Source of the DNA: Nanobdellota archaeon | GTDB taxonomy: Archaea > Nanobdellota > Nanobdellia > Nanobdellales > Nanobdellaceae | NCBI GenBank assembly: GCA_042850255.1 | Contig: AP031373.1 | Span: 330,001 to 362,000, forward strand | Reading direction: 5' to 3' | DNA length: 32,000 bases | Part shown: piece after piece, positions 2,264 to 26,115 of the stretch | Position numbering within the stretch: the first letter of the stretch is position 1 | Layout of the letters: the number at the start of each line of letters is the position of its first letter | The notes under the pieces: generated by a model | The model's database searches: none | Told to the model about the DNA's origin: nothing | Seen by the model: the letters and a program-made list of their open reading frames with translations, nothing else | Program-made: the position numbers and the translations under genes

Positions 2264-3607
2264 ATGGATAGTGAAACTTCTAATAAAATCTTGCACTATA
2301 TAATTAACATGGAAGATGTAATAGGAGGTATAGTAAAAGAATATTTGGAAATGAAAAAAGATATATTTAAAAGAGAATTGGAATTAGAACCTATAGAAAA
2401 TAAATCTATAAGTATTATAGGACCCAGAAGATCTGGTAAAACATATTTATTATTGTATTATTTCCAAAAATATAGAGAAGAAGGAAAAAATGTAATATTT
2501 TTCTCATTTGATGATGATAGAATATATCCTCCATCTTTAGAAACATTCCAAACATTAATTAGAGTATCAAAAAATATATATACAGAAGGTAAAATTTATT
2601 ATTTTTTAGATGAAATTCAAGAAGTAGAAAATTGGGAATTGGGGGTAAAAAGATTAATAGAAAAAGAAGATTCTTATGTATTTATTACAGGTTCTTCTTC
2701 TAAGTTATTATCAAAAGAAATTGCTACACAATTAAGGGGTAGAACTATTACATATGAATTATTTCCATTTTCATTTAAGGAAGTTATACAATTTGAAGGA
2801 ATAAAAATAGATAAATATTTTACTGAAAGAGAATTAGAAAAAATAAAGAGAATATTAAAAGAAATATTATTTATAGGATCATTTCCAGAAGTTATAGTAA
2901 ATAAAGATAAATATGAAGAAATATTAAAAGAATATTATAATGTAATGTTATTTAGAGATATAATAGAAAGATGGGGAATTAAAAATATAAAAGCATTAAA
3001 ATTATTTTTGAAATTGGTTATAAATAACTTTTCAAATAAATTTTCTATAAATAGAATAGAAAAATATATGCAAAATCTGGGAATAAAAATAAGTAGAAAT
3101 ACATTATATAACTATTTAGAATATTTATCAGATGCTTATATAGTATTTTATTTAAAAAAATTTAGTTATTCTTTAAGAGAAATTGAACAAAGTATACCAA
3201 AAATATATCCTATTGATAATGGATTAATAAATGTATCTTCATATTCTTTATCAGAAAATATAGGTAGGTTAATGGAAAATTTTGTATTTTTATCATTAAG
3301 AAGAAAATATAAAGAAAATGAAAATATATTTTATTTTGAAAATAATAATTATGAAATAGATTTTTTAATAAAAGAAGGTAATAGAATAACTAAATTAATT
3401 AATGTTAGTTATGTTAATAATTTTGATGAAATAGATAAAAGGGAAATAAGATCATTAATTCATTCTTATGATTTGTTTAAAGAACATAATCCCGAATTAA
3501 TAATTATTACCTGGGATTATGAAGATGAAAAAGAAATTTCATGGTTTAATAAAAAAGGTAGAATTAAATTTATACCTTTATATAAATGGTTATTAAATAG
3601 TAAATAA
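2264..3607 (+). CDS. AAA+ ATPase, AAA_14/DUF4143 (COG1373-like) family, full length
   Basis: Walker A GPRRSGKTYLL and Walker B YFLDEIQEV are present, as is the conserved GSSSKLLSKEIATQLRGR segment. The C-terminal region is typical of DUF4143-type ATPases (YEIDFLI...). It is a paralog of 1..1187. Confidence 0.85.
   Translation: MDSETSNKILHYIINMEDVIGGIVKEYLEMKKDIFKRELELEPIENKSISIIGPRRSGKTYLLLYYFQKYREEGKNVIFFSFDDDRIYPPSLETFQTLIRVSKNIYTEGKIYYFLDEIQEVENWELGVKRLIEKEDSYVFITGSSSKLLSKEIATQLRGRTITYELFPFSFKEVIQFEGIKIDKYFTERELEKIKRILKEILFIGSFPEVIVNKDKYEEILKEYYNVMLFRDIIERWGIKNIKALKLFLKLVINNFSNKFSINRIEKYMQNLGIKISRNTLYNYLEYLSDAYIVFYLKKFSYSLREIEQSIPKIYPIDNGLINVSSYSLSENIGRLMENFVFLSLRRKYKENENIFYFENNNYEIDFLIKEGNRITKLINVSYVNNFDEIDKREIRSLIHSYDLFKEHNPELIIITWDYEDEKEISWFNKKGRIKFIPLYKWLLNSK
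3351..3607 (+). repeat. Conserved 3' block of ATPase paralog 2, near-identical to 931..1187
   Basis: See 931..1187. A second short block, 2685..2743 versus 271..329, has 2 mismatches in 59 nt at a different offset (2414). Confidence 0.9.
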
Positions 3608-4132
3608 TTTTATTCTTTCTTTTCCAGATAATTCTTGTATTATTCTTTGATAAATTATATCTTCAACTTTTCCAATTCCTTTAACTCTTTTTTCTATATC
3701 TTCGAATGATTTAAATGGTTCTTTTTGTCTTTCCTCAATTATTTTTTGTACAGTAACTTTTCCTATATTTGGTAACAATTCTAAAGTATGCACTTTAATA
3801 TTTAATGGTCCTGCTTTATTAAAAAATTCCACATATTTTTGTTCATTTTTCTTTATTAAATCTTTTATTACTCTTTCTAAATTTGCTTTTGCAATTTCTG
3901 GTAAATCATCAATACCAACTCTTCTTAATATAGATCTGACTTTTGGTCTTTGTCCTTCTCCTACATATAATTCTTCAAATAAATTTACTGTCACTCCGGG
4001 TTTTAATGTTAATAACAATAATGTAAAATAATCTTTTCCTACAGCATATACTACAGGTTCCTTAATATTTTTAGTTGGGTCTCCTGCAGGTAGATATGCT
4101 AGTACAATTGCGTACTCTTCTCTTTTATTCAT
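3593..4132 (-). CDS. DUF655-family predicted nucleic-acid-binding protein (OB-fold plus helix-hairpin-helix)
   Basis: The N-terminus EEYAIVLAYLPAG... and the C-terminal HhH-like LLPNIGKVTVQKIIEERQKEPFKSFEDIEKRVKGIG match this family. It sits in the conserved archaeal neighbourhood directly downstream of rpoF, overlapping it by 8 nt. Confidence 0.7.
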   Translation of the reverse strand: MNKREEYAIVLAYLPAGDPTKNIKEPVVYAVGKDYFTLLLLTLKPGVTVNLFEELYVGEGQRPKVRSILRRVGIDDLPEIAKANLERVIKDLIKKNEQKYVEFFNKAGPLNIKVHTLELLPNIGKVTVQKIIEERQKEPFKSFEDIEKRVKGIGKVEDIIYQRIIQELSGKERIKLFTI

Positions 4133-5172: not shown

Positions 5173-5703
5173 TTATTTTTTAATATTATTATTTATAATA
5201 TCTCTTAGTTTTATTGCATCTTCTTTATTTAACAGTGGTATTTCTATTACAATATTTAAATTTTTATTTAATAATAAAGTATTTGTATAAATTTTTAAGG
5301 AATAACATTTTGTGAGTTTTTCATAAAGATTCTGATCTATTTCTACATTATATATATTTTTATTAGATATACTATATATATTTTCATTTATTATTTGTAT
5401 TAATCTCTCGTTTGTAAAAATTATATAATAATCTTTTCCTTTATTATAATATGATAAGGCAAAATATGATACTATAGAAAATATTATAATTAACAATATT
5501 ACCGAAGTTAATCTTGATATACTACTTGGGTTATATATTATTGAAAAAGAAAATGAGATAAAATATATTGCAAATAATATATATAAAGAAAAGGTATATC
5601 TTAATGAATATAAATTAGGATCAAAATTTACCATAAATAAAGGTTCTTCATTTTCATCTAACTTTATTTTTTCCTTAATTTTTTCTTTATCATATATTAT
5701 CAT
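5173..5703 (-). CDS. Membrane protein with two TM helices and a C-terminal bPH-like (YdbS/YdbT-type PH) domain
   Basis: Two hydrophobic helices (FSLYILFAIYFISFSFSII and VILLIIIFSIVSYFALS) are followed by the pattern YYIIFTNERLIQI...IYNVEIDQNLYEKL...SLKIYT, typical of bacterial/archaeal PH domains. Confidence 0.5.
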   Translation of the reverse strand: MIIYDKEKIKEKIKLDENEEPLFMVNFDPNLYSLRYTFSLYILFAIYFISFSFSIIYNPSSISRLTSVILLIIIFSIVSYFALSYYNKGKDYYIIFTNERLIQIINENIYSISNKNIYNVEIDQNLYEKLTKCYSLKIYTNTLLLNKNLNIVIEIPLLNKEDAIKLRDIINNNIKK

Positions 5704-5754: not shown

Positions 5755-6216
5755 ATGTCAAGGTTGAATAAATATTGGTTTATACTATTTGTAATATTTT
5801 CAGTAATAGGTGTAGTTGTATCTTCAATATTATTATATACATATTACTTTCTTCATATATCTCCATTATTTTGTCCAGAAAATTATAATATATTAGGAGT
5901 GGATATAAATTGTTTGAAAGTTTTATCAAGTAGTTATTCAAAATTGTTCAATTTACCATTAGATTTTTTAGCATTAATATGGTTTATAATTGATATTTCT
6001 CTTGTAACAATTTATAATTATTTGAAATATAATATATTTAGAATTTTATTTTATTGGAGACTTCTAGGTTTATTATTTATACCATATTTAATTTATACAG
6101 AAATAATGGTAATTAATTCTATATGTATATATTGTACTACAATGCAATCTATGATTATATTAGATTTTATTATTTCAATAATATATTCGTATAAAAATAA
6201 AATAAAATTAATATAA
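5755..6216 (+). CDS. Vitamin K epoxide reductase (VKOR) family membrane thiol oxidoreductase
   Basis: There are four or five hydrophobic segments. A loop cysteine pair (CPENYNILGVDINC) is followed by the SSSYSKLFNLPLDFLAL motif (the SxYS..F..P pattern of VKOR). An intramembrane CxxC (CIYC) is also present. Confidence 0.7.
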   Translation: MSRLNKYWFILFVIFSVIGVVVSSILLYTYYFLHISPLFCPENYNILGVDINCLKVLSSSYSKLFNLPLDFLALIWFIIDISLVTIYNYLKYNIFRILFYWRLLGLLFIPYLIYTEIMVINSICIYCTTMQSMIILDFIISIIYSYKNKIKLI

Positions 6217-6251: not shown

Positions 6252-6440
6252 ATGAGAAATGATATATCAATTGATATGATAATATTTATCATTATAGGAT
6301 TAATAATATTAATATTGGCAGCATTTTTCGTAGCAAAAATTTATTATAGTGGATATAATACCGCAAATCAATCTAATAATTTTATAAATAGTACATTTGA
6401 AAATGTTACAAATACATCTATTCCATCATTAGTACAATGA
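6252..6440 (+). CDS. Small prepilin-like / N-terminally anchored protein (62 aa)
   Basis: MRN-DISIDMIIFIIIGLIILILAAFFVA is followed by an Asn/Ser/Thr-rich tail carrying N-x-S/T sequons (NST, NVT, NTS). Its stop overlaps the next start (ATGA at 6437-6440). Confidence 0.6.
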   Translation: MRNDISIDMIIFIIIGLIILILAAFFVAKIYYSGYNTANQSNNFINSTFENVTNTSIPSLVQ

Positions 6441-8773
6441 AAAGTGATGTATTAAATTTTATTTATTATACAATAATATTTATTATAATTATTACTGGTG
6501 TTATATTTATTTTATTATCTATATTTAAGTTCCATTTTTCCTTCTTTACTTATTATTCTGAAACTTCATTTTCAAATAATAATGCAAATAATAATAATCA
6601 TAACAATAATATACCTCAAATAAATTCCACTATTGCAGTATATTTATATTATAAAAGTGGTTTAAGTATATCATTTATACAACAATTACCAGAAGGTATA
6701 AATTATGTAATAAATACATCATATTATAATTTAAAAGGAGTACAAAATACAAATTTATTACAAATAATACCAAGTTTAATAATAAATAATACATTTAATA
6801 TTTATACAATACAATCTGCAGATTGTAATAATATAGTAGGAAATGGACAACCATGTTTGCAAACTAATATAACATTAGAAAATATTACAACAAATTCTAC
6901 AAGTGTTAGTTATAATGGATATACATGTTCTGTAAGTTCTAGTAGTTCTCAAACATATCCTGCAGGAGGTTTTGCATTATTTTGTATAGTTTGTTATGGT
7001 ACAAACAATCCTAATTCTGCATATTATTATATAAATAATCCTATACAAATAAATATAACTCCCGGAATATCTTTATTAAATAATTTCCCAAATACAAATT
7101 ACTATAATTATACTGTTACATTAACATTACAAAATGAAACAATAAAAGTAATACCTTTGGCAGTACAAGGTGCATATCAAATGCCAAATTTTCAAACAGT
7201 ACTAGTAAAAATTACATCTCCTTTTAATCAATATGTAAATAATAATGGAGATAATGTAATATTCTTTACACAAGATATACAAAATGGACAATATTATGCA
7301 TTACCATCTTGGTATGCTGGGGAAAATAATGGTAATTATTATTTCTTTGTTAATTTATTAGAATTTCCTGAATTATATGAAGAGAATTTACAAGGATGTG
7401 CATATTTACCATTATATATTGGATTTACAAATAATAATTTATATTCAATATTAAATGGAACTATTGGAGGAGATCCAATTGCAATAGATCCTAATAATCC
7501 TGTAAGTGTAATGCAATATGATAACGGACCAAATGTATTTCCAATATATGTAAACTTTTATAATTATGGATATCATGATCATTGGCAAGAAATAGGTAAT
7601 AATATTTACCAATGGTACGATTTTAGTAATGTATTACCTACATATAATTATTGGACATTAAACGGAAGTATAATTACTGGTAATCCTAGTTTACAAGTAA
7701 CATCAAATGGTCCGATGTATGGATTGGAAATGTTGAATGGAACAAATCAAGGATCTTATATATTAATTAATTCTACAGTATTAAATTATTATTTCCAAAA
7801 TTATTTAAATAGTCAAGGAGTAGGAATAAATACATTTGTATACTTTTCAGGAATCCCATGGGAGGATTCTCCTCCTTCAGATCCTTATAATCCATTTGGA
7901 TCTGCACCATTAGTTTCCGATGGTATAGTTATTTCGTATATTACAAAAGGTACTCCGCTTACGCCTTCAATAGTTGTAAGTTTTAATTCTATGTTGCCTA
8001 CTAATAATCTTACTTTTGTGCTATTTGAGTATGGTTGGGGTACTGGTGCTGCAGGATCTGGAGAAGTTGCTGGTTATTATGTAGGACAAACTGATGGTAA
8101 TAACTATCAGTTTTATTATGGAGGATCTGGATGGAGCTGGATTTGGAATTGGTTTAGTTCAGGTTGGAAATTAAATTATTATTTTGGACAAGTAATTAAT
8201 AATCAAAATAATATACAATCTTCATCTCAATATATCCCATTTGACCCTCAAGATCAACAAAAAAATCAAAATTATGATTATTATGGAATACTATATACAT
8301 ATTTATGGTATAATATAAGTTCTCAGAATCCTAGTAATATAAATACATACTTTTTAGTAAATGGAAACATATATAACAGTCCATTACCAAAATCTAATTA
8401 TCAATGGAGTTGTAGCTGGTCTGGATGTTATCATGCAGAAGCAATAATACCCGAACCGCCTAGTTCATATTTTATTCAAAGTTATCACAATGCGTATCAA
8501 ACTGCATTTGTAGCTGAAGGAAATGTATCATTGAATAATTATCAAAATCCAATTTCACCAACTGGTTTGAGTTATGGATTTATTTATGGTACTTTTGGAT
8601 ATAAAGAAAAATATGGAAATATAAGAATTGATTATTTGAATGCAAATGCACAATATTATCAAGGAACACCTTATTTATTTATATCTACAGGATCAGGAGC
8701 AGGAAGTGGATATATGTATTTAGATTGGGTTATTGCAACATTTGGAGTTCCTTATGAAATAAACGTACCTTAA
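6437..8773 (+). CDS. Large N-terminally anchored secreted protein (778 aa), Asn/Tyr/Trp/Gly-rich; putative adhesin or lectin-like
   Basis: MKS-DVLNFIYYTIIFIIIITGVIFILLSIF is followed by a poly-Asn tract (NNNANNNNHNNN). It has many sequons and 8 Cys by my count. An aromatic/Gly-rich block reads YGWGTGAAGSGEVAGYY...GGSGWSWIWNWFSSGWKLNYYFGQ. No catalytic motif was recognised. Confidence 0.8.
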   Translation: MKSDVLNFIYYTIIFIIIITGVIFILLSIFKFHFSFFTYYSETSFSNNNANNNNHNNNIPQINSTIAVYLYYKSGLSISFIQQLPEGINYVINTSYYNLKGVQNTNLLQIIPSLIINNTFNIYTIQSADCNNIVGNGQPCLQTNITLENITTNSTSVSYNGYTCSVSSSSSQTYPAGGFALFCIVCYGTNNPNSAYYYINNPIQINITPGISLLNNFPNTNYYNYTVTLTLQNETIKVIPLAVQGAYQMPNFQTVLVKITSPFNQYVNNNGDNVIFFTQDIQNGQYYALPSWYAGENNGNYYFFVNLLEFPELYEENLQGCAYLPLYIGFTNNNLYSILNGTIGGDPIAIDPNNPVSVMQYDNGPNVFPIYVNFYNYGYHDHWQEIGNNIYQWYDFSNVLPTYNYWTLNGSIITGNPSLQVTSNGPMYGLEMLNGTNQGSYILINSTVLNYYFQNYLNSQGVGINTFVYFSGIPWEDSPPSDPYNPFGSAPLVSDGIVISYITKGTPLTPSIVVSFNSMLPTNNLTFVLFEYGWGTGAAGSGEVAGYYVGQTDGNNYQFYYGGSGWSWIWNWFSSGWKLNYYFGQVINNQNNIQSSSQYIPFDPQDQQKNQNYDYYGILYTYLWYNISSQNPSNINTYFLVNGNIYNSPLPKSNYQWSCSWSGCYHAEAIIPEPPSSYFIQSYHNAYQTAFVAEGNVSLNNYQNPISPTGLSYGFIYGTFGYKEKYGNIRIDYLNANAQYYQGTPYLFISTGSGAGSGYMYLDWVIATFGVPYEINVP

Positions 8774-8792
8774 AAAATAATTATAAAAAATA

Positions 8793-9827
8793 TTATTGTC
8801 CGCTATAAAAAGTATTAATATTAGTAATTGGAAGGTTGCCCCCATATGTTTGAGATGTTGTAAATGAAAGGAATCCATATGGTATTAATGTATTATTATT
8901 TGTTTGTATTACATCTTCGGCACCGAAAACATAAGGTTGAGGAGCATATTTAGCCATATCTCCAGTTTCTAATACTAAATTCCATAATGTTTGATTAGTC
9001 ATTTGTAAATATTGTAAACCATTAGCACCTACAGCCATTGCTTTATAATTTCCTGTTCCTAATGCTTCCATATATTCTTTTGCAAAACCTTGTGGTACAA
9101 CAACATCAGTATAACTTTGTGGATTTAACTTGTCTAACAATATTGTATTATTGTGTGTTATTGGTAATACTATTCCATTTGGATTATATATTGTTATAAT
9201 TTGTTCTAATGGAACATAGTTTGAATTATTTGGTACTACATTTTGATTAAATTGTTGTGGTACATTTAATGATTGTGCAAAATCTGGTCTCATTTGTAAA
9301 TTATATGTTCCTAAATCATGTAAATGACCATGTGGTCCTACATAATATAATGTACCTTGATCATTTCCATCATATTTTATAAATGCATAATCAGGAAGTT
9401 TTAATACTTGTACACTCGGTTGAGAATTTATGTCATGTAATCCAAATAATATTCCTAGAGCAATAGCAGCAGCACCAACAGCTCCAACACCTATAGCTAA
9501 ATACTTTGTGAATTTAATACTACTTTTAGTCTTTTTATAGTTATATTTATCAATTGTTCCATCCTTATATGCACCTTCTATTAAATTATCTAAATATCCT
9601 AATTGTCCTTTAACAGAATTATATGCTCTTACAGGTGGTAATAAATAAATAAATGTCGTTCCATATATCTTTGCCTCTTCTCCTATTTCTTTTAATTTAT
9701 TATCCAAGTAAGATCCATAATAATTTGCCTTTTCTTTTAATGATCTAAAACCATTCATTATTTTTGACCCTACACCTTTCGGTTTTAAAATGTTATCCAA
9801 CCTAGTATTACCTTTGTTTCCTAACAT
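8793..9827 (-). CDS. Bitopic membrane protein: ~110 aa cytoplasmic N-domain, one Gly/Ala-rich TM, ~210 aa external domain
   Basis: A 344-codon ORF. The central helix is YLAIGVGAVGAAAIALGILFGL, preceded by KKTKSSIKFTK (positive-inside). No cysteines by my reading. It is the only opposite-strand gene inside the island. Confidence 0.75.
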   Translation of the reverse strand: MLGNKGNTRLDNILKPKGVGSKIMNGFRSLKEKANYYGSYLDNKLKEIGEEAKIYGTTFIYLLPPVRAYNSVKGQLGYLDNLIEGAYKDGTIDKYNYKKTKSSIKFTKYLAIGVGAVGAAAIALGILFGLHDINSQPSVQVLKLPDYAFIKYDGNDQGTLYYVGPHGHLHDLGTYNLQMRPDFAQSLNVPQQFNQNVVPNNSNYVPLEQIITIYNPNGIVLPITHNNTILLDKLNPQSYTDVVVPQGFAKEYMEALGTGNYKAMAVGANGLQYLQMTNQTLWNLVLETGDMAKYAPQPYVFGAEDVIQTNNNTLIPYGFLSFTTSQTYGGNLPITNINTFYSGQ

Positions 9828-9915
9828 ATAATATAATTTATTTAAGCTTTTTTAAATTTTATCACCATCTGGTATTAAAATTACTATTATAAATTTCTAA
9901 GGATTACTATAAAAA

Positions 9916-11187
9916 ATGAGAAAAAAAGGACAAGAATCAACAATTATAAGCATAGTAATACCTATAATAATATTTATTATAATAATTGTTTTCTTATTTT
10001 TCTTATTAAAAGCAGCTTCATATTCTGGTAGATTACCTGCAAAATTTGGATATGCTTTAGCAGGTTCAATAAGTTTAATAGTAAATAAACCAGCACAAAT
10101 TGCTCAATCAATTGGAGAAGATGGTTTAATAGCGCTTGCTGGTTTCGCAGCTGCAGCTTTTATAATAGGGGGAGCTGATGCTTTAGGAGGAGAGGAAGAT
10201 ATAGTTCCTGCAGAAGAAGAGGAAACAATAGGAAATACAAAGGATTTAACACAAGATTTTTCTCAGTTAGAAAGTACAGTAGGAAATCCAGGAGATGAAG
10301 AAGGTTCATTATCTACATTTTTAAAGGGAGGAGCGAGCGCTGTAGGAAAATTAATAGGAAATCCTTTATATCAAAATTCTTTACTATTTTTTGGAGGATT
10401 GTTTCTTATAGGAGATATTACTAATACAATAGCATCAGAAATACAAACACCAATATTAAACTATTTAGCTCCAGAAGGTGTATATTTTATAGATTTTAAT
10501 AGTTTATCTTCTAGTGATTTAAATCAAATGTATCAAAATTTAAATCAATCTTTTGTAAAACCAATAGAACAATATTGTCAAAATCCACAGAGTCCGGAAT
10601 GTGAAAATATATTTTTAACATATTTAATAGCATTAGATTTATATTATACGTGGGGAGAAACGTTGGGACAATCTGTAGCAATAGCAGGATCCCATGACGA
10701 ATATTTTATTGGATATATAAATTATAATTCTGGTAATTATAATGTTACACAAGAGGGTGTTTTATGTATGTTGGGAATGATGGACTTTTTCGGACAATCT
10801 CCCTTGGATCAGATGTATAATATGAATCTACAAGAATTACTTAGTGATATTAATTATGATGGAGATTTAGAATGCCAAATAGCAAAACAGGTTTTAAATA
10901 TAAATTTAGTAAGCAGTGGTACACCATGTTCATCTAGTAGCGCAAATATACCAGATACTGTAACTCAAATGGATGTATATGAAACATATGAGGTTCAGCA
11001 TAATTCTGTATCTTTTTATCAATGCTCCTCATCGCAACCATCAGATTATAATATTATTATTCCTTCCACTAATGGTAATTATTATTCCGGATACTTACAA
11101 TATTTATATGATGGAGGAACACAAGGAATTATAGTTTCATCAGTATTTGGAGAACAATCAAATAATCAACAAAGTTCAAGTCAATAA
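9916..11187 (+). CDS. Prepilin-like N-terminus protein (423 aa) with further hydrophobic segments and a Cys-containing C-terminal domain
   Basis: MRKKG-QESTIISIVIPIIIFIIIIVFLFFLL has the basic residues, Gly and polar residue then long hydrophobic helix expected of an archaeal class III signal peptide. There are two more hydrophobic stretches (GLIALAGFAAAAFIIGGA and SLLFFGGLFLIGDITNTIA). An acidic linker (EEDIVPAEEEE) is present, and I count 6 Cys. Confidence 0.8.
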   Translation: MRKKGQESTIISIVIPIIIFIIIIVFLFFLLKAASYSGRLPAKFGYALAGSISLIVNKPAQIAQSIGEDGLIALAGFAAAAFIIGGADALGGEEDIVPAEEEETIGNTKDLTQDFSQLESTVGNPGDEEGSLSTFLKGGASAVGKLIGNPLYQNSLLFFGGLFLIGDITNTIASEIQTPILNYLAPEGVYFIDFNSLSSSDLNQMYQNLNQSFVKPIEQYCQNPQSPECENIFLTYLIALDLYYTWGETLGQSVAIAGSHDEYFIGYINYNSGNYNVTQEGVLCMLGMMDFFGQSPLDQMYNMNLQELLSDINYDGDLECQIAKQVLNINLVSSGTPCSSSSANIPDTVTQMDVYETYEVQHNSVSFYQCSSSQPSDYNIIIPSTNGNYYSGYLQYLYDGGTQGIIVSSVFGEQSNNQQSSSQ

Positions 11188-11219
11188 TACTTATAAATTA
11201 CAAAGAATCCAATATTCTT

Positions 11220-11351
11220 ATGGATAATACTTTGTTAGGAATCATAATAGCATTAATATTCTTTATATTAATTTTAATATTAGTATTTGTAGTTTTGGGG
11301 CCAAATATAGGTTATAATATAAGAATATTTGCAATAAACAATGTTCCGTAA
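11220..11351 (+). CDS. Micro-ORF (43 aa), single hydrophobic helix; not in the supplied ORF track
   Basis: Manual translation from ATG 11220 to TAA 11349-11351 gives MDNTLLGIIIALIFFILILILVFVVLGPNIGYNIRIFAINNVP. It overlaps the next ORF start (11341) by 11 nt. Confidence 0.45.
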   Translation: MDNTLLGIIIALIFFILILILVFVVLGPNIGYNIRIFAINNVP

Positions 11352-11532
11352 AAGATCAGATACTTCTACAGATTTTTTAGTTTATGTAGTATTATTTATA
11401 GTTGCTTTATTAATAGTAGTAGCATTTATGGTGTTTTATTTCCATGGTGGAGTAAATCTATTTAAAAGTGTAAAACCAGCAAATGGATCTGTAATTGTTA
11501 ATGATGTACAAAATAATAATTATAATCCATGA
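11341..11532 (+). CDS. Small prepilin-like protein (63 aa)
   Basis: MFRKRS-DTSTDFLVYVVLFIVALLIVVAFMVF is followed by a short polar tail with the sequon NGS. Its stop overlaps the next start (ATGA at 11529-11532). Confidence 0.6.
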   Translation: MFRKRSDTSTDFLVYVVLFIVALLIVVAFMVFYFHGGVNLFKSVKPANGSVIVNDVQNNNYNP

Positions 11533-11678
11533 AATCTGATATATCTATAAGTTTTTTAATATACTTAATAATCGCAATAATAATTATTATACTAGCAATA
11601 ATATTTTATTATACAATATATCATGGATCTGTAGCTCTTAATGTAACATCTGTAGGATATAAATTCCTAAATCAATGA
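11529..11678 (+). CDS. Micro-ORF (49 aa), prepilin-like; not in the supplied ORF track
   Basis: Manual translation gives MKSDISISFLIYLIIAIIIIILAIIFYYTIYHGSVALNVTSVGYKFLNQ. The N-terminus closely resembles those of 6252 (MRNDISIDM...) and 6437 (MKSD...). ATGA overlaps occur at both ends (11529-11532 and 11675-11678). Confidence 0.5.
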   Translation: MKSDISISFLIYLIIAIIIIILAIIFYYTIYHGSVALNVTSVGYKFLNQ

Positions 11679-12589
11679 GAACTTTATTATTCAAATTTAT
11701 ATTTGAACTAATAGTTCTAATAATATTAATAATTATGATATATGTAGTTGTAGAAGCACTTATAGGTTCTCAATTATCTACAGAACATCAATATATAAAA
11801 TATACAAAAGATATAGGTGATATATTTGATGGAACTTCTCAACAATTATTCATACCTCAATATAATCCAGAGTTTGTACCAGTTCTAGTTATAGGAAAAG
11901 ATAATTATGTATATATTGAAATGTATAAATGTAGTTATAACATAAATTCAGAATTTCCTTCAATGCCCTTATGGAATGTTTCAGAGGGAAATGGTATTTA
12001 TTTATTTGCACCCGATTTATCTCAATGTATATTAATTTATCAATATGGTATAGGATCTTGTAGTAAATTTAATAATAATATAAATGTTTATATAAGTTCT
12101 TTGGGCGGTGCAGCAGGTTATGTAATAGCATCTCCAGGACCTTTATCAACTATACCTCAAATTCTTGTTCCATTTGTATATGTATCAATATATTCAGATC
12201 CGATAACAAATATTGTATTTAGGAATATATATAATCTTCAAACATATATAGATAATGATACTGTTATAAGTTGTAGTTGTAACGGTGGATCTGCACAATG
12301 TGAGGTAGAATTTGATGGTAATTCTTATCCATTAGAATGTTATCTTTCATTAGGTTCTAATATAGAAGCATGTGCAGAATTATCAGGAATGATAATTACA
12401 ACTTCTAGCAATTTCTTTACAAATCTTTATGATCAAGACATTTTAACTGGATCTGAAATAAATATAAATAATGAACAATATCCATACTTGCTTCTATATT
12501 TAGGTCAGTTTGTAAGTAATCCAATATTATTAGTAGAAAATGAAAATGGCGGAATATATTTTTACTATGAAATTCCTGTAAAGCAATAA
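11675..12589 (+). CDS. N-terminally anchored secreted protein (304 aa), Cys-rich
   Basis: MRTLLFKFIFELIVLIILIIMIYVVV opens the protein. I count 8 Cys, including the cluster ISCSCNGGSAQCEVEF. Sequons NVS and NDT are present. No domain was recognised. Confidence 0.8.
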   Translation: MRTLLFKFIFELIVLIILIIMIYVVVEALIGSQLSTEHQYIKYTKDIGDIFDGTSQQLFIPQYNPEFVPVLVIGKDNYVYIEMYKCSYNINSEFPSMPLWNVSEGNGIYLFAPDLSQCILIYQYGIGSCSKFNNNINVYISSLGGAAGYVIASPGPLSTIPQILVPFVYVSIYSDPITNIVFRNIYNLQTYIDNDTVISCSCNGGSAQCEVEFDGNSYPLECYLSLGSNIEACAELSGMIITTSSNFFTNLYDQDILTGSEININNEQYPYLLLYLGQFVSNPILLVENENGGIYFYYEIPVKQ

Positions 12590-12590
12590 A

Positions 12591-13751
12591 ATGGAGGAAG
12601 AATTGTTAGAAGGAATTATAGCTTCTGTATTTTTAATTATAGTTGCTTTAATTGGATTTTTTTTACCAAGATTAGCTTCTGAATTCTTTAACTCTCATAA
12701 TCCATATCTAGTTTTAGAAGTAGCAGGATTTTTAACTTATTCTACTTCGGAACCTGGTAATATTTCTGCTTTAATACCAGTAACTCAAGCTGCAGATCAA
12801 GAACTAGAGTTTAGAATAATACCTCCAATAAGTACTGGTTGGGTATTTTCAACATATGATAATAGCGATTTTGCAGTAGCAATTGGATATTGTGTAGAAC
12901 AAAATTTATGGCAGCAGTTAGGATATGATGCTTTAAATGCCTTAATTAATGCAGTATTCGCATATTTTAAAGGTGGAGGGCTAGTTAGTGATGAAGCACC
13001 TTTAAGTAGTATAATTTTCAATAGTATAAAATTTTCTTCGGAAATGTATGCAGCAAATACACTGCAATTAGCAGCTTTAAATGTTTATGAGAATTATGGA
13101 CTTTACAGTGGTAATTTTGTTCAAAATCTTGCCACATCTTTTCAATCTGCTCTTGGAGAATCTGCTATTTTTACAGGAGAAAATGTTATAGAAACTTATA
13201 TTGATTCTGCATTATTCTTTGTTGCAGATTTTGGTGGTCCAATTGGATTTTTAGCAGCTACTGCTATTAATTTTGCAATAAATGCTATAGTTACATTTAT
13301 ACAATACGAAAATGTACAAAGTAATGAATTTGCAAGATGTTATAATTATTGTGAATATAAAAATAGTTGTAATGGTAACTATTTCATATATAATAATTTA
13401 CTATTATTCCAAGTTTATTATAACCCACAATTTGATATATATGATGACTGTAGTTCGCCAGAGTTATGTAATAATCAGTTAACACAAACAATATGTTTAA
13501 GTTATGAACAAGTAGTAGTTAATGGAATACCTAAAGAAGTATGTACAAATGAAGAAACAGTAGTAAGGGATACTATACCAGCATATAATTCTCAAAATCC
13601 AAATGAAGATTATATAATTAAGATAGAATTAGGATATTATAATCAAACTACTGGAGAATTTTATTATCCAGAGTTTTTATTATTACAAAAGGTTGGAGGA
13701 AATCCATTTGGGTATATAAATGTTAGCGTTTATTATACTAAATATTCATGA
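12591..13751 (+). CDS. N-terminally anchored protein (386 aa) with an internal hydrophobic region and a Cys-rich C-terminal domain
   Basis: MEEELLEGIIASVFLIIVALIGFFL opens the protein. An internal hydrophobic stretch reads FFVADFGGPIGFLAATAINFAINAIVTFI. I count 8 Cys (ARCYNYCEYKNSCNGN, DDCSSPELCNN, ...). It starts 1 nt after the upstream stop. Confidence 0.8.
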   Translation: MEEELLEGIIASVFLIIVALIGFFLPRLASEFFNSHNPYLVLEVAGFLTYSTSEPGNISALIPVTQAADQELEFRIIPPISTGWVFSTYDNSDFAVAIGYCVEQNLWQQLGYDALNALINAVFAYFKGGGLVSDEAPLSSIIFNSIKFSSEMYAANTLQLAALNVYENYGLYSGNFVQNLATSFQSALGESAIFTGENVIETYIDSALFFVADFGGPIGFLAATAINFAINAIVTFIQYENVQSNEFARCYNYCEYKNSCNGNYFIYNNLLLFQVYYNPQFDIYDDCSSPELCNNQLTQTICLSYEQVVVNGIPKEVCTNEETVVRDTIPAYNSQNPNEDYIIKIELGYYNQTTGEFYYPEFLLLQKVGGNPFGYINVSVYYTKYS

Positions 13752-14653
13752 GAGCATTAGGATTAAAAGATATAATTGAATACATACTTGCTGCTGTTAT
13801 TGTTGTAGTTTTTACTATATTATTAATATTTTTCTATGGATTTTACGAAACTGAACAATATAATCTACAATCTTATGAAATATTTTATCAATCCTTGTTA
13901 GTTGATAGATTAAATTATTGTTTATATAAATATACGGGAAATCCTTATTATTTATTTTATGCTCCATCAAATAGTACATTACAAGAATATTGGAATAAAC
14001 TTGAAGGATGCTTTATGAATTATTCTGGATTTTTTGAAGTACCAATTCAGTATTATAAGGTTACTAGTAATGTAAATGGAGAAGTTGAAGAAAATTATAC
14101 TATAGAATATGCTAATTTATCATATGTAGGAGTACCATATTTAATATTTTATAACATAAATAATTTATCAAAAAGTTACATATTTTATTATAATCAAACT
14201 TTTAGTGGATCTTTAATATCAAATAATTATTTAGAAGCTTCTGCATTCTTACTTGGAGCATCATCTTTAATTATCAGTACTTTAGCTACTAGTTATGTAA
14301 GTCCTCCATCTTCTGTAAATGTAAATAATAATAATCAACTATACAGTTTATTATCCCAATATTTATTAAACGAATCTAATTATACTGAACAATTATTACA
14401 AAATATTACTGCATATAATAATACATTTGAAGATTTTTATAAAGAGTGTGTACAAAATGGATTTAAAGAAGGTATATTTATGTATCCAATGTTATCAAAA
14501 TCCATTTTTGAAGTAAATTATAATGGAGAACCAATAAATATTGGAGTATACCAATTTGGATTAGTAATATATAATAAATTATATAATGCTACTTGTGAAT
14601 ATATAAATGGCAAAATAACTAATAATTGTGATATAACAACTAATGGTCAGTAA
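13748..14653 (+). CDS. N-terminally anchored secreted protein (301 aa)
   Basis: MRALG-LKDIIEYILAAVIVVVFTILLIFF opens the protein. It carries many sequons (NST, NYS, NYT, NLS, NQT, NES, NIT, NNT, NAT) and 5 Cys by my count. An ATGA overlap joins it to the upstream gene. Confidence 0.8.
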   Translation: MRALGLKDIIEYILAAVIVVVFTILLIFFYGFYETEQYNLQSYEIFYQSLLVDRLNYCLYKYTGNPYYLFYAPSNSTLQEYWNKLEGCFMNYSGFFEVPIQYYKVTSNVNGEVEENYTIEYANLSYVGVPYLIFYNINNLSKSYIFYYNQTFSGSLISNNYLEASAFLLGASSLIISTLATSYVSPPSSVNVNNNNQLYSLLSQYLLNESNYTEQLLQNITAYNNTFEDFYKECVQNGFKEGIFMYPMLSKSIFEVNYNGEPINIGVYQFGLVIYNKLYNATCEYINGKITNNCDITTNGQ

Positions 14654-15125
14654 AAAAAGTCAAATAGGATTTTTCTTATCTTTAATAATATCTGCTATAT
14701 TATTTCTATTCATGATAATTTATTTATTATATGTAAGTAAAAATGAACCTGCTTCATTATATGGAGTTGCATCAATACAATTGGAAGGACTTGAATATAA
14801 ATCTTCTAATGGATATTTAAATTCTTTGATGTATTATGATGGAATAAAAGTACCAGTTATAGATTTATATGGAGGATATTATAATAACGAAAATCTAAGG
14901 GATTATATAATGAATCAGACAATAAATGATACTATATATTATTTAAATTATTCATCTACAATATTATACTTTAACTTTTTTGGAAATCAAACGGGTATTT
15001 GCTATAATGGATATTTAGTAAGTTATCATATTTATTTGGATGGAAAAAGTATATTATATCAAACCTGTCCCCCAACTACATTATCAATATACTATTATAA
15101 TATAACATGTTTAGATCTTCAATAG
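14643..15125 (+). CDS. Prepilin-like / N-terminally anchored secreted protein (160 aa)
   Basis: MVSKKS-QIGFFLSLIISAILFLFMIIYLLYV opens the protein. Sequons NQT, NDT, NYS and NIT are present. It overlaps the upstream gene by 11 nt. Confidence 0.75.
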   Translation: MVSKKSQIGFFLSLIISAILFLFMIIYLLYVSKNEPASLYGVASIQLEGLEYKSSNGYLNSLMYYDGIKVPVIDLYGGYYNNENLRDYIMNQTINDTIYYLNYSSTILYFNFFGNQTGICYNGYLVSYHIYLDGKSILYQTCPPTTLSIYYYNITCLDLQ

Positions 15126-15156
15126 TTATATAAGTAAAAAGGATTTATAATAAATT

Positions 15157-16620
15157 ATGAGAAAAAGAGGATCGCTTGCTCCTTTGGTATTATTGGTATC
15201 AATTATTATATTATTAATTTTTGCATTTTATTATCTAACTTCTCAGGTAAATAGTGAAGTATTAGATATGGAATATTTATCTGAAGATTATGCAAGTTAT
15301 CAAAAAGCTTTATATTATATTTTTGTTTATGTACCATTTGAAATAAGATATAATCTAGTTAATTTAATATTAACAAATCTATATTCAAATGGTAATACAT
15401 ATAATATAAATAATATATTAGTAAATACTAATTATTATTCTACTTGTCAAATACCATTTGTAGAAAATTTAAATCAGAATGGTGATAATTCATTCTCTTA
15501 TTCCTTATGTATTCCTTTACTATATGTAGAAAATTGTCAAAATAATAATCCAACGCTTTTTGTTGATATATTAAATAATGTACAACAATCTTTGGGAAAT
15601 ATAAAAGATAGTACATTGAGTTTTTCTGGATTTTCTGAAGGACAATGTCAATATTATTTAGAAAATGTACAATATAATTTCACTATTGAAAATGAATATT
15701 CTAGAGTAATAAATTTTGGTAATATAAATTATCCATTTTATTCTTATGAATTGTATTATGATTATATAATATCATATTTATATAATCAAACATATGGATT
15801 TTTTAATTATGTTATAAATAATCAAAGTAATTTTTCTACTTATTCTAATTATATATATTATAATCAAACTCAAGGAGATAATGTTTATTTAAATTTATCT
15901 TTTAATAATAACGCTTATTATGTTTTAGACTTATATTATAATACATTATTACCACTTCAAGATCCAAATATGACAAATATAACAATAGTATTACCATGTG
16001 AAGCATTTGGCCAATTATATAACGGTAATTGTATAGCAAATCAAACATTAGAAAATTATCAATATGAATGTTTATATACAAAATCTGAAAATTTGCAATA
16101 TTTATTTAGTAAATTAAAATATAAATTGTTTAAGCAAAAAATATTTGATGGATATTGGTATAATATTACAAGCATAAATTATCAATATTCATTATCAAAT
16201 TTACCTCCAGATTTTTTAGATTGTAGTAATACAATAAATTTTGCTGAAAAAATTGTTGGAAATTATACATATTTTACTGGAGGAGATTATCCTGTATTAG
16301 TTCCAGTTAATATACAAGTTAATTATAATAATATTTCATGTTCTATTAAAAATCAAATATTTCAATTTGGACCTTTTAGTAGTATAGGTAGTTGTGATAA
16401 TGAGCAAAATATAGTAGATAATATATTAATAAGTAATAATGTCAACAATTGCATTATGAATGCATGTACAGAAATTAATAACAATTATTATTTTAATTTA
16501 ACATGTAATGATATTGTTCAAACTCAATATTTAAATTCTTTTAATTATAATTATCAAATATACGAATGGTTTAATATAAATGATAAAAATATTAATAATT
16601 TCTGTAGTAGTTTACAATAA
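15157..16620 (+). CDS. Prepilin-like / N-terminally anchored secreted protein (487 aa), Cys-rich, Asn/Tyr-rich
   Basis: MRKRG-SLAPLVLLVSIIILLIFAFYYL opens the protein. I count 14 Cys, all downstream of the helix. Sequons are dense. The 3' end overlaps convergent taw3 by 29 nt. Confidence 0.8.
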   Translation: MRKRGSLAPLVLLVSIIILLIFAFYYLTSQVNSEVLDMEYLSEDYASYQKALYYIFVYVPFEIRYNLVNLILTNLYSNGNTYNINNILVNTNYYSTCQIPFVENLNQNGDNSFSYSLCIPLLYVENCQNNNPTLFVDILNNVQQSLGNIKDSTLSFSGFSEGQCQYYLENVQYNFTIENEYSRVINFGNINYPFYSYELYYDYIISYLYNQTYGFFNYVINNQSNFSTYSNYIYYNQTQGDNVYLNLSFNNNAYYVLDLYYNTLLPLQDPNMTNITIVLPCEAFGQLYNGNCIANQTLENYQYECLYTKSENLQYLFSKLKYKLFKQKIFDGYWYNITSINYQYSLSNLPPDFLDCSNTINFAEKIVGNYTYFTGGDYPVLVPVNIQVNYNNISCSIKNQIFQFGPFSSIGSCDNEQNIVDNILISNNVNNCIMNACTEINNNYYFNLTCNDIVQTQYLNSFNYNYQIYEWFNINDKNINNFCSSLQ

Positions 16621-17193: not shown

Positions 17194-17667
17194 ATGGATA
17201 AGGAGAAAATAATATTAAATATATTATTCCTTATAATGGTAATACCTATGATATATCTAATATATTATTCTTATACAACATTCTTTAAGAAACAAAATAC
17301 TGTAAATCCATCAAATCCTTATAATTTATATATATCAGATTTTTCAGTTAATGGAGATTCTTTTTCATTTTATGTAACAAATCCATCAAATTATACATTA
17401 CAGTTATATTTTACATATTTGGGAATAAAAAATTCATACCAATCTTCTTCAATAATTGTTGATGCTCCATTTATTAATAATGTCTATTATTTAAAACCAG
17501 ATGAAAAAGTATATATAAATTATGATTTTTCAATAGATGAAGATACAAGAACTGTGATATTACAATGGGAAAGATTAGGAGGTTATTTATATCTATCCTT
17601 ATATTATCAAACAATAGGAAATAATTCTGTAAATGGAATAATAAACTATGAAATAGAAAAAAGTTAG
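17194..17667 (+). CDS. N-terminally anchored hypothetical protein (157 aa from Met at 17194)
   Basis: The track ORF starts at 17134 but would overlap the taw3 start by 55 nt. The in-frame ATG at 17194 gives MDKEKIILNILFLIMVIPMIYLIYYSY, followed by a beta-rich polar domain. Confidence 0.6.
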   Translation: MDKEKIILNILFLIMVIPMIYLIYYSYTTFFKKQNTVNPSNPYNLYISDFSVNGDSFSFYVTNPSNYTLQLYFTYLGIKNSYQSSSIIVDAPFINNVYYLKPDEKVYINYDFSIDEDTRTVILQWERLGGYLYLSLYYQTIGNNSVNGIINYEIEKS

Positions 17668-23980: not shown

Positions 23981-25395
23981 GAATAATCTTCTTTTATTAA
24001 ATCTTCCAAAAATTTATACCAATATTTTTCAGATTTTCTATTTAAAAACCTATAATTAATATACAAAAATATCAATAATAGAATAATAAAAGATAAGGTA
24101 GAATAAAGTATATTATTAATAAATAATGGGATTAATGATATAAAAATAAATATAGATAATATTATTATCATTAAAAATTGTTTGAAATCTAATCTTGTAA
24201 ATTGTCTATCATAAATAAATCCTTTGTATTGTGGATTTAATTTACCTACATAGTACCAGGATGGAATTACTATTATTATAGGTAACAAAATCAATGAATA
24301 TATTGAAAATAGGAATAAATAAGATTTTTTAATTAAAAATAATAAAAATAAAATTATTAACCATGGAAAAATTATTTTATAACTATTTATCATTCTTAAT
24401 TTCATTTTTTTAATTATATAATTTAAAAAATAATAATTACCTGCATTTATCCATAATCTTTCAAATCCTATTGACATTTCTAATCCTACAGAAATTGTAT
24501 ATAATAGAAGGAAGAAGGAATAATAATATAAATAGGAAGTTTTTAAATAATATAAGAAAAATATAAATGAAAATATTAAAGAAAAAATAATTAATCTATT
24601 TATATAAATATTTGACATTTCTTTTATTGGGTCTTTCTTAAATATAGATTCTTTCTTTTTAAATAGATCTGGAACTTCTTCTGAATATATAGTATAAGCA
24701 TTTAAATAAAATTCTGTAAAACTTTTTCTAGATAATAAATAAATTAATAATAAATAAAGAATTAAAAATATTGTAGAATAATATCTAGAGAAGAATATAT
24801 TTATTTCTGGAGGGTAAAATAAATTTATGAGTAATAATATTATTAATGGTAAAGAATAAATAACTTTTTTAATAATATTTTCTGGTAAATATGTTATAAA
24901 AGATACTAAAAATGAAAATATGAAAGAATTAATTAGAGTAAAAATAATTATATAAATTGTTAGGTGGTGATAATAAAATAAAAAATATATATAAGATAAG
25001 AAAAATGGTAAAATTATAAAATAAATAAAAAATAAGAAGGATAAAGATTTATATAAAATATATCTTTTTATATTAAAATCAGAAGATAATATAAAATCAA
25101 TTTCAGATTTGGAATATGTAATATTTCCATATAAATTTATTTTGGAATTTCCAGTATATATTCTTAATATTATTACAAATATATTTGTTAAAATTAAGAT
25201 AAAAGACATCCATAGTATAGAGCCTAGAGTAGAATATGTAAATAAAAAATTAAAATAATTGATTGGTGTTAATTTTATTAAAGAAAAATAAATAAAAGAT
25301 AAAAATGGGAAATAAACTAAAATAAAATATAAAATAATATATATTAAAATTTGTCCTCTACTATACATATCCTTAAATATATATTTTAATATCAT
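23977..25395 (-). CDS. Polytopic membrane protein, probable ABC-2-type permease partner
   Basis: A 472 aa protein with about 10 or more hydrophobic helices. An ATGA overlap (25392-25395) couples it to the upstream ABC ATPase gene. Confidence 0.55.
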   Translation of the reverse strand: MILKYIFKDMYSRGQILIYIILYFILVYFPFLSFIYFSLIKLTPINYFNFLFTYSTLGSILWMSFILILTNIFVIILRIYTGNSKINLYGNITYSKSEIDFILSSDFNIKRYILYKSLSFLFFIYFIILPFFLSYIYFLFYYHHLTIYIIIFTLINSFIFSFLVSFITYLPENIIKKVIYSLPLIILLLINLFYPPEINIFFSRYYSTIFLILYLLLIYLLSRKSFTEFYLNAYTIYSEEVPDLFKKKESIFKKDPIKEMSNIYINRLIIFSLIFSFIFFLYYLKTSYLYYYSFFLLLYTISVGLEMSIGFERLWINAGNYYFLNYIIKKMKLRMINSYKIIFPWLIILFLLFLIKKSYLFLFSIYSLILLPIIIVIPSWYYVGKLNPQYKGFIYDRQFTRLDFKQFLMIIILSIFIFISLIPLFINNILYSTLSFIILLLIFLYINYRFLNRKSEKYWYKFLEDLIKEDYS

Positions 25396-26084: not shown

Positions 26085-26115
26085 TAAAAAATATATTTTT
26101 TTGAAAAATAAAAAA

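Follow-up and report, generated by a model that had tools for sequence, protein, structure and literature searches.

A conserved, clade-specific gene island encoding membrane-anchored, outward-facing proteins, some with pilin-derived N-termini, in the nanoarchaeal ectosymbiont YN1

Within a 32,000-nucleotide stretch of contig AP031373.1 (assembly GCA_042850255.1, positions 330,001 to 362,000; hereafter the window) from YN1, a cultivated Nanobdellota ectosymbiont on Sulfurisphaera ohwakuensis YN1HA (Johnson et al. 2024, PMC11420986), we describe an island of genes at window positions 6252-16620 that is a previously undescribed, conserved operon-like locus specific to the Nanobdella, Nanopusillus and Nanobsidianus clade. 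We give roughly even odds (a probability of about 0.5) to the reading that the island encodes a multi-subunit cell-surface or host-contact assembly built on type IV pilin-like N-terminal helices. The first-pass annotation, which was made from the sequence alone, had guessed at a small-genome, symbiont-like archaeon as the source, and YN1, a genome-reduced nanoarchaeal ectosymbiont, fits that description: on database sequence comparison, the product of 6437-8773 was identical to YN1_3820 and that of 14643-15125 was YN1_3910, and the window combines a G+C content of 24% with archaeal gene content (L21e, acidic ribosomal protein P, DnaG, class V FBPase, AlaRS and TYW3).

All eleven plus-strand genes that the first-pass annotation had drawn between 6252 and 16620 were present at those positions in the list of open reading frames (ORFs); what it had overlooked is that the set has a twelfth member, encoded on the minus strand at 8793-9827 (344 aa). 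We refer to the genes in map order as g01, g02, g03m (the minus-strand gene) and g04 to g12. Their packing is as had been described, with 4-nt overlaps at 6437, 11529, 11675 and 13748, 11-nt overlaps at 11341 and 14643 and a 1-nt gap at 12590, and these tight overlaps suggest translational coupling and co-expression of the subunits. The proposed common N-terminal plan likewise held for 11 of 11 plus-strand products: a polar N-terminus of 2-8 residues is followed by one hydrophobic helix of 20-30 residues (Kyte-Doolittle mean 2.1-3.9 over 19 residues within the first ~35). Because only 4 of the 22 other ORFs in the window start in this way (two single-pass and two polytopic proteins), eleven hydrophobic starts in a row are far beyond chance. 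The compositional claims were also borne out, in that the large products contain 3-14 Cys (1.0-2.9%, versus 0-0.7% in the window's cytoplasmic proteins) and up to 16 N-x-S/T sequons each, and are rich in Asn and Tyr. Two products, g04 and g09, carry additional Gly/Ala-rich hydrophobic segments beyond the N-terminal helix and may not be simple single-pass proteins.

Synteny, which the first-pass annotation had named as a check, is extensive: orthologues that share 30-60% identity are arranged in the same way in no fewer than 25 further genomes or contigs. The arrangement is the same in Nanobdella aerobiophila MJ1 (about MJ1_0039-0050), in Nanobsidianus stetteri Nst1 and AB-777_F03, in Nanopusillus acidilobi 7A and in the Nanopusillus metagenome-assembled genome (MAG) CON-C, and it was kept in 18 of the 18 metagenome contigs of at least 8 kb that were retrieved by a g11 profile. 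The order runs from a bPH-like gene and a gene of the vitamin K epoxide reductase (VKOR) family through g01, g02, g03m (minus strand) and g04 to g12 to TYW3 (minus strand), a gene for a 157-aa protein and DnaG; in one divergent Nanopusillaceae contig, the g04-g09 part is inverted. Between YN1 and its relatives, island proteins share 27-50% identity versus 57-78% for flanking housekeeping proteins, a pattern typical for exposed proteins. Homologue and profile searches returned no relatives outside the clade except in host genomes. The block is therefore a fast-evolving yet positionally fixed core locus of the clade, and neither an artefact nor a mobile element.

Evidence for pilin ancestry came from a pair of small genes that are flanked by eIF-1A and ArgRS some 7 kb upstream in Nst1, Nanopusillus and Nanobdella (positions 2833-3311 of locus L003, 1056-1555 of L006, 2790-2981 of L007, 2821-3285 of L009 and 2719-3311 of L014 in our collection, all on the minus strand of these loci); the YN1 copies of the pair are not in the 32-kb window. 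The first gene of the pair encodes a protein of 63-121 aa with a canonical class III start (MVKKG/QSLPINTIIILIIALVVL, or MKG/QNISIETIIIIIIAIIVL in Nanobdella, the slash here and below marking the putative processing site) and a sequon-rich tail, and the second a 62-aa g01-like protein that starts with MKRS/DAINF. The canonical start is comparable to archaeal processing sites with experimental support, among them KGQI, KGQV and RAVS, and the residues before the helix in the island families likewise resemble known sites such as KGQI, RAVS and DAVS. A 45-residue N-terminus hidden Markov model (HMM) was built from five of the canonical upstream pilins, with 36 transmembrane (TM) segments from the same genomes and 71 shuffled island N-termini as controls. 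Median scores were 27.4 bits for g01, 15 for g07, 10 for g06 and 8 for g04 (in YN1, 13.7 for g01, 15.6 for g04, 11.5 for g06 and 14.2 for g07), and the controls reached at most 9.9 bits (TM segments) and 4.2 bits (shuffles). On iteration with jackhmmer, all orthologues of these families were taken in (8 of 8 for g01, 7 of 7 for g04, 7 of 7 for g06 and 6 of 6 for g07), along with none of the 36 TM controls and none of the 71 shuffles. Of all the ORF starts possible in the window, 399 in number, the HMM picked out g04 (the top match), g07, g01 and g06 alone at E ≤ 0.01, each at its annotated start. Because the canonical-pilin profile finds exactly these four with clean controls, we consider g01, g04, g06 and g07 to be pilin-derived, their N-termini being, as far as sequence comparison can tell, demonstrably homologous to the clade's canonical KG/Q small pilin. 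The prepilin-like reading that the first-pass annotation had extended to all eleven products is therefore supported for these four, but the N-termini of g02, g05 and g08-g12 are inseparable by sequence from ordinary signal anchors. When N-termini were compared with one another, g02, g11 and g12 were isolated, g05, g08 and g09 were weakly interlinked and g10 was weakly linked to g04.

Motif rules were also applied to the leaders. The strict FlaFind-type rule for class III signals, which is said to come from Szabo et al. 2007, calls for a short charged leader that ends in [KRDE][GA] and leads straight into a ~20-residue hydrophobic stretch. The earlier caveat that several N-termini fail this pattern was well placed, since g09 (LLEG/IIAS) is its sole match in YN1; the YN1 starts of g04 (KG) and g12 (RG) fail strict rules at positions after the cleavage site. 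Among orthologues, the strict pattern occurs in 6 of 7 for g09, in 2 of 7 for g04 and in one each for g06, g08 and g10. The -1 column holds G or A in some orthologues of g02, g04, g06, g08, g09, g10 and g12, and S, T or N in others. A relaxed [KR][GASTN] motif is present in all or nearly all orthologues of g01, g02, g04, g06, g08, g10 and g12, absent from every g05 orthologue and mostly absent in g07 and g11; it does not discriminate by itself, because any anchor with its N-terminus inside the cell starts with a basic residue. The Tad/Flp combination of a G/XXXXEY motif and a mature size of 45-60 aa was not found among the island proteins: the small proteins g01 and g05-g07 are without EY, and in g10, which is 301 aa long, the E and Y of [SG]/LKDIIEY stand one position later than in the Tad/Flp motif.

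Sequons are conserved directly behind the helix (for example, four in the 30-residue tail of g01), as are paired Cys (for example, C120/C142 in g11), and from these features we infer that the C-terminal parts of the plus-strand products lie outside the cell, in an N-in/C-out topology. VKOR-family proteins are extracytoplasmic disulfide oxidants. The YN1 member, a membrane protein encoded at 5755-6216 on the plus strand (Pfam PF07884, E = 3.9 × 10−20), is likely to be the oxidant of the Cys-rich ectodomains; the gene immediately precedes g01 in Nst1, N. stetteri F03, Nanopusillus spp., N. acidilobi and KM4331-08, and only in Nanobdella is it not at this place, a distribution that fits a set of disulfide-bonded ectodomains. 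Identity in the helix equals or exceeds that in the ectodomain in most island families, as illustrated by g10 (0.84 for the start versus 0.44 for the ectodomain), g02 (0.77 for the TM helix versus 0.43 for the remainder across orthologues) and g09 (0.6 for the N-terminus versus 0.35 for the ectodomain). Such conservation argues for specific helix-helix or helix-machinery contacts, beyond anchoring.

The individual products fall into a wide range of sizes. Among the small ones, g01 (6252-6440, plus strand; 62 aa; start MRN/DISID, then the helix and the sequon-bearing tail), g06 (11341-11532, plus strand; 63 aa; KRS/DTSTDFLV in YN1, HKG/QISTFLV in Nanobdella) and g07 (11529-11678, plus strand; 49 aa; MKS/DISISFLIY) are the small pilin-derived proteins; g07 is a paralogue of g01 (BLASTP E = 4 × 10−9), and several of its orthologues have an acidic start, MEADNSINF. 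The 43-aa g05 (11220-11351, plus strand) is helix and little else, with an acidic or neutral start (MDNTLLG; METGELLK in orthologues). The most canonical class III-like start belongs to the 423-aa g04 (9916-11187, plus strand), which reads MRKKG/QEST in YN1 and KKG/VSDS, KRA/VSDD or MKS/ISDS in orthologues; the protein continues with a conserved SY[SA]GR..AKF.YAL.G motif, its further G/A-rich hydrophobic segments (at aa 60-95, followed by an acidic stretch, and at ~155-185) and a Cys-containing C-terminal domain. A comparable G/A-rich segment lies at aa ~200-235 of g09 (12591-13751, plus strand; 386 aa), a protein with an acidic start, a conserved LL[DE][AG]/IIASIF sequence that fits the FlaFind-type pattern with D or E at -2, a conserved sequon (NIS/NMT) behind the helix and a Cys-rich C-terminal domain. 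The internal segments of g04 and g09 differ in sequence between orthologues and keep their hydrophobic character; they may cross the membrane as additional TM helices or insert into it.

Of the remaining products, the largest is g02 (YN1_3820; 6437-8773, plus strand; 778 aa), with an N-terminal helix and a large beta-rich ectodomain with sequons; all 46 of its homologues are in Nanopusillaceae and Nanobdellaceae or in hosts of these. Its minus-strand neighbour g03m, always tail-to-tail with g02, has a cytoplasmic N-domain of ~108 aa, one TM helix (109-130) and an ectodomain. The helix of the 304-aa g08 (11675-12589, plus strand) includes a conserved [KR][IV][IV]F[DE][IL]I and precedes an ectodomain with 8 Cys. 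The 301-aa g10 (13748-14653, plus strand) has the near-invariant start MR[SA][LF][SG]LKDI[IV]EYI and 11 sequons in its ectodomain; g11 (YN1_3910; 14643-15125, plus strand) is pilin-sized at 160 aa and combines an invariant K.QIGFFLS start with two invariant Cys; and g12 (15157-16620, plus strand; 487 aa) starts with MRKRG/SLAP in YN1 and MKT/SLAP or MIKS/SLAS in orthologues and contains 14 Cys and 13 sequons. Beyond the minus-strand TYW3 gene lies a possible thirteenth member (17194-17667, plus strand; 157 aa), in which an N-terminal helix starting MDKEKIILNILF is followed by a beta-rich Asn/Tyr domain with no Pfam family; its position is kept in all relatives, and on that basis it may belong to the island set.

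The view that these proteins match no known family was upheld: searches of the island proteins against Pfam, NCBIfam and PHROGs gave noise only, and nothing was returned when PDB sequences were queried by profile or with single proteins. A profile of the g02 family returned 120 matches among 1.84 billion representative proteins, all of them members of the family itself or fragments. For g11, a single-sequence homologue search found two proteins only and a genome-collection scan with g11 alone found none, so that alignments were needed. AlphaFold2 (AF2) models were made for both. The g11 model (35-sequence alignment; mean predicted local distance difference test (pLDDT) 53) has a confident helix at 4-34 and then low-confidence beta strands, and the g02 model (25 sequences; pLDDT 58, predicted TM-score 0.62) has a confident helix at 2-32 and is all-beta afterwards. 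Foldseek comparison of the two models with PDB and BFVD gave no match at E < 1 × 10−3; weak hints that recurred above that threshold were to concanavalin-A-like lectin and Ig-type adhesin domains. g02 is a candidate adhesin. Paralogy of the large ectodomains in the manner of minor pilins was considered and rejected, with HHalign probabilities below 1% for all pairs of eight, and BLAST similarities between g10 and g12 and between g02 and g12 proved to be compositional rather than homologous.

Machinery of the type IV pilus (T4P) kind is on record for these organisms. Nst1 encodes FlaI, a clade-4 ATPase and three T4P ATPases of clade 2, their 'cognate pilins not identified' (Makarova et al. 2016); two T4P systems, an archaellum and a fast-evolving FlaJ/TadC homologue have been described for Nanoarchaeota (Jarett et al. 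2018); T4P-related genes are listed for the sister strain YN4 (YN4 preprint); and YN1 has FlaBDEHIJF. Machinery without known substrates thus exists in the clade, encoded away from the island, to which its tie is hypothetical. We also considered that a pilus ATPase might adjoin the island in some lineage, and found no case among 13 genome and 46 metagenome loci.

In the assembly that we favour, the products would be inserted N-in/C-out, oxidised by VKOR and N-glycosylated, and their N-terminal helices would bring them together into one hetero-oligomeric structure, most likely a complex of the minor-pilin, tip-adhesin or 'bindosome-like' type. Its stem or core might be made of the small subunits g01 and g05-g07, the large, unrelated ectodomains of g02, g04 and g08-g12 would be displayed at the surface and g03m could be the membrane partner of g02. 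Assembly would be carried out by one of the clade's T4P ATPase/TadC pairs, encoded elsewhere; given leaders of just 2-5 residues in most products, their removal may be either relaxed (with G, A, S, T or N at -1) or dispensable. The island probably serves contact with the host cell.

Several observations weigh against this pilin-based assembly. No pilin family or Class_IIIsignal model in Pfam or NCBIfam matched at a meaningful score: Pilin_N (Pfam) matched 2 of 43 island N-termini, with a best E of 0.0024 and generic TM-family noise for the remainder, and ten chosen N-termini had no Pilin_N match; TadF, Tad and DUF7287 scored at noise level only. The clade's canonical KG/Q pilins, used as a positive control, had no pilin-family match in Pfam or NCBIfam either, and because they fail the same libraries this silence is uninformative for the clade. 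Seven of the eleven plus-strand families (g02, g05 and g08-g12) were negative against the pilin profile. Known prepilin peptidases prefer G or A at -1, and the strict [KRDE][GA] ending is present in YN1 in g09 only, with N, S, T and even F or I at -1 in many orthologues. The ectodomains are mutually unrelated and very large by pilin standards, the extra hydrophobic segments of g04 and g09 misfit a pilin, and the low-confidence models of g02 and g11 contain no demonstrable pilin fold. No ATPase, platform protein or prepilin peptidase was found in the window or in the 10-kb flanks across more than 25 related loci, the A24 peptidase was not found in two nanoarchaea (Makarova et al.), and the island proteins are not mentioned in a Nanobdella surface-protein study of proteins with detectable signal peptides.

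Much the same evidence suits a different arrangement, in which the products would be ordinary uncleaved signal-anchor (type II) membrane glycoproteins, tethered in an extracellular complex or lattice (for example, a contact-site envelope) that needs no T4P machinery, with the pilin ancestry of four small or early subunits a historical relic. We regard this main rival as possible but less likely than the pilin-based assembly: it would account for non-canonical -1 residues in most families and for seven families that look like control anchors, for large ectodomains unrelated to one another, for the extra segments in g04 and g09, for the lack of machinery in cis and for an A24 peptidase undetected in two nanoarchaea, and a tethered lattice would also suit the attachment organelle described below, whose cone replaces the S-layer on the outside of the symbiont membrane. 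It sits less easily with the homology of four families to the canonical KG/Q pilin, with N-termini and helices as unusually conserved as those of g10 and g02, which a plain anchor would not need, with the occurrence of G or A at -1 in some orthologue of nearly every family, and with the clade's pilus ATPases that are without known pilins. The weaker proposal that these are functionally independent membrane proteins, grouped only through operon co-expression or genome compaction and sharing no structure, could point to ectodomains that share no detectable homology and to the fact that no function is assignable to any of them; we judge it very unlikely, given an order that is invariant in more than 25 genomes and contigs despite 30-50% protein identity, overlaps of the kind seen in translational coupling, one shared N-terminal plan, a common VKOR neighbour and the duplication and transfer of g02 and g03m as a pair. 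An integrated virus or other mobile element, with virion or entry proteins as its products, would explain a G+C content of 0.254 in the island versus 0.232 in its flanks, products that are all orphans and the movement of the g02 C-terminus and g03m into host genomes, but it is barely credible for a locus that has a fixed chromosomal position between L21e/bPH/VKOR and TYW3/DnaG in three genera and many populations, that includes no integrase, att site or capsid gene, and for which neither PHROGs nor 2.9 million viral contigs gave a match and no BFVD fold matched significantly.

For the pilin-based assembly, the closest working analogies would be minor-pilin/tip-adhesin operons and the Sulfolobus bindosome. 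In the Sulfolobus bindosome (Bas), large sugar-binding proteins that bear class III signals go together with the small pilin-like BasA/B/C and with BasE/F, an ATPase and a membrane protein. By analogy, the island would share with it large ectodomains on pilin-type helices, small pilin-like partners and a surface assembly rather than a long fibre; however, no island product has a substrate-binding-protein (SBP) domain, the locus contains no BasE/F-like gene and YN1 is not a sugar-scavenging free-living cell. Bindosome loci are mentioned by Makarova et al. Membership in either a Sulfolobus-type bindosome or a Tad/Flp system was rejected, as SBP and basEF genes are absent at the locus and the G/XXXXEY motif is not present. 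Bacterial minor-pilin and pseudopilin operons (FimU-PilVWXE with PilY1; GspH-K) offer a comparable layout of co-directional, coupled genes with pilin-type helix starts, in which small and large members are mixed and one member is very large and adhesin-like (here g02, 778 aa), and the presumed priming or tipping of a structure whose major subunit is encoded elsewhere may be a further parallel. The bacterial operons differ in that they belong to another domain of life and other families, and the island has no N-methylation-type G/F motif, no conserved E5 and no homology to them.

A further comparison is with the Epd pili of Methanococcus maripaludis (EpdA-E; sites RAQI, KGQV, KGQL and KGQI; 74-aa major pilin). 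As in the Epd pilins, a short basic leader is followed at once by a ~20-residue hydrophobic helix, and Q occupies +1 in YN1 g04, in g06 and g11 orthologues and in the canonical upstream pilin; very short small pilins, sequon-bearing tails and a cluster of pilin-like genes away from the ATPase genes are common features, and the nanoarchaeal T4P ATPases fall in the same clade 2. Unlike the Epd proteins, most island proteins have S, T or N rather than G or A at -1, and EppA, PibD and FlaK are not known for the clade; seven island products carry 130-740-aa ectodomains without resemblance to pilins, and the island is known from its genes alone.

Part of the island has entered host genomes. Two host chromosomes contain g03m and the 3' two-thirds of g02, again arranged tail to tail. 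One is that of S. ohwakuensis YN1HA (AP031374, about 1,658,176-1,660,518, or 10001-12343 of locus L001; compare window positions 7388-9616), where g02 aa 318-778 are retained at 64% aa identity and g03m at 67%, in a GC trough (0.28-0.29 versus 0.33-0.38 in the flanks) adjoining insertion sequence (IS) and toxin-antitoxin genes. The other is the Thermoprotei MAG KM4331-12 (contig JBMFJH010000016; locus L010, 667-3290), where an insert of 0.30-0.33 G+C lies within 0.53-0.62 surroundings, a high-GC leader continues in frame into the g02 part, and a vapB-like 3' end is repeated on both sides of the insert (KLEKYFGVLSEEEAEE.WREI; 128-466 and 3603-3842) with an adjacent PIN gene; this copy looks like an independent second transfer, although it may be an assembly chimera. 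Both host copies are without the first ~290-320 residues of g02, helix included. Judging from the sequences, then, it looks as though the C-terminal part of g02 and g03m moved from symbiont to host at least twice. Duplicates also exist within the clade: N. acidilobi 7A has a second full g02 and g03m pair (locus L004, 9983-13428) at another genomic site, surrounded by genes for housekeeping functions and glycosyltransferases, and in Nst1 the island itself contains a tandem of two g03m-like genes (locus L016, 12625-14919). Being co-duplicated and co-transferred, g02 and g03m behave as a unit. The second N. acidilobi locus was tried as a source of informative neighbours and yielded housekeeping and glycosyltransferase genes only.

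A two-TM protein with a bacterial PH domain (bPH_2) is encoded at 5173-5703 on the minus strand of the window, and in nanoarchaea it always precedes VKOR and the island. A two-TM PH-like protein is also encoded at the YN1HA host locus, ~1.3 kb upstream of the transferred genes in the same low-GC trough (locus L001, 8304-8747, minus strand); no sequence similarity was detected between the host PH-like protein and the nanoarchaeal bPH_2 protein.

Elsewhere in the window, the gene at 30384-32000 (plus strand, running off the end) encodes a thermopsin-family acid protease (Pfam E = 1.4 × 10−56) with very many sequons; its ordinary Sec-type signal (MKKYILILFLLLGLKYIYS/Q) had been contrasted with the island starts, and that contrast holds. 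Thermopsin-like proteins have been proposed in Nanobdella to attack the host S-layer. A minus-strand ABC-type set at 23977-27405 comprises a 429-aa N-terminally anchored protein with 15 sequons, a 230-aa ABC ATPase and a 472-aa permease with ~10 TM segments; neither the anchored protein nor the permease has a Pfam family, and the set may be a MacB/FtsX-like exporter. Two AAA_14/DUF4143 ATPase genes lie on the plus strand at 63-1187, without the N-terminal part of the domain, and at 2264-3607. Because these AAA_14 genes occupy the place that in Nanobdella and Nst1 holds the region of MCM, ArgRS and fibrillarin, the left flank of the island appears to be rearranged in YN1.

Cryo-electron tomography has revealed an attachment organelle of cone, portal and filament in YN1, Nanobdella aerobiophila and YN4; it lies against the symbiont membrane from the outside, where it takes the place of the S-layer, and a 7-8 nm filament or tube belonging to it extends into the host. 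No gene is named for this organelle in the published descriptions of YN1, Nanobdella and YN4, and no mention of the island locus tags was found in the literature. Because the island is a clade-restricted, co-conserved, outward-facing and partly pilin-derived set in the same organisms, it is a candidate for this structure, and we raise as a speculative and rather unlikely proposal that it supplies parts of the Nanobdellales attachment organelle, both structural and adhesive, and that this bridge between symbiont and host cytoplasm is a device derived from type IV pilins. Small pilin-like subunits would then make up the 7-8 nm filament or tube, or else the base of it, and large Cys-rich glycoproteins the portal, the cone or a host-binding tip; g02 and g03m might act as a host-contact module, captured repeatedly by hosts via gene transfer through the bridge, and the copy held by a host could possibly serve as a decoy or exclusion factor. 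The organelle occurs in these organisms, the island is confined to their clade, and its products are membrane-anchored and extracellular, so that the link is one of co-occurrence and plausibility; on the other side of the comparison, a cone needs an abundant repeating subunit.

How DPANN and Nanobdellota symbionts hold and tap their hosts is an open question, for which the island supplies twelve defined, clade-specific, co-conserved and outward-facing proteins, four of them with pilin ancestry, in cultured organisms. The apparent repeated transfer of g02 and g03m would be physical evidence of DNA flow from symbiont to host, and it points to this pair as functionally special. Together, these results make two puzzles testable: the missing pilins of the nanoarchaea and the genes behind their attachment organelle.

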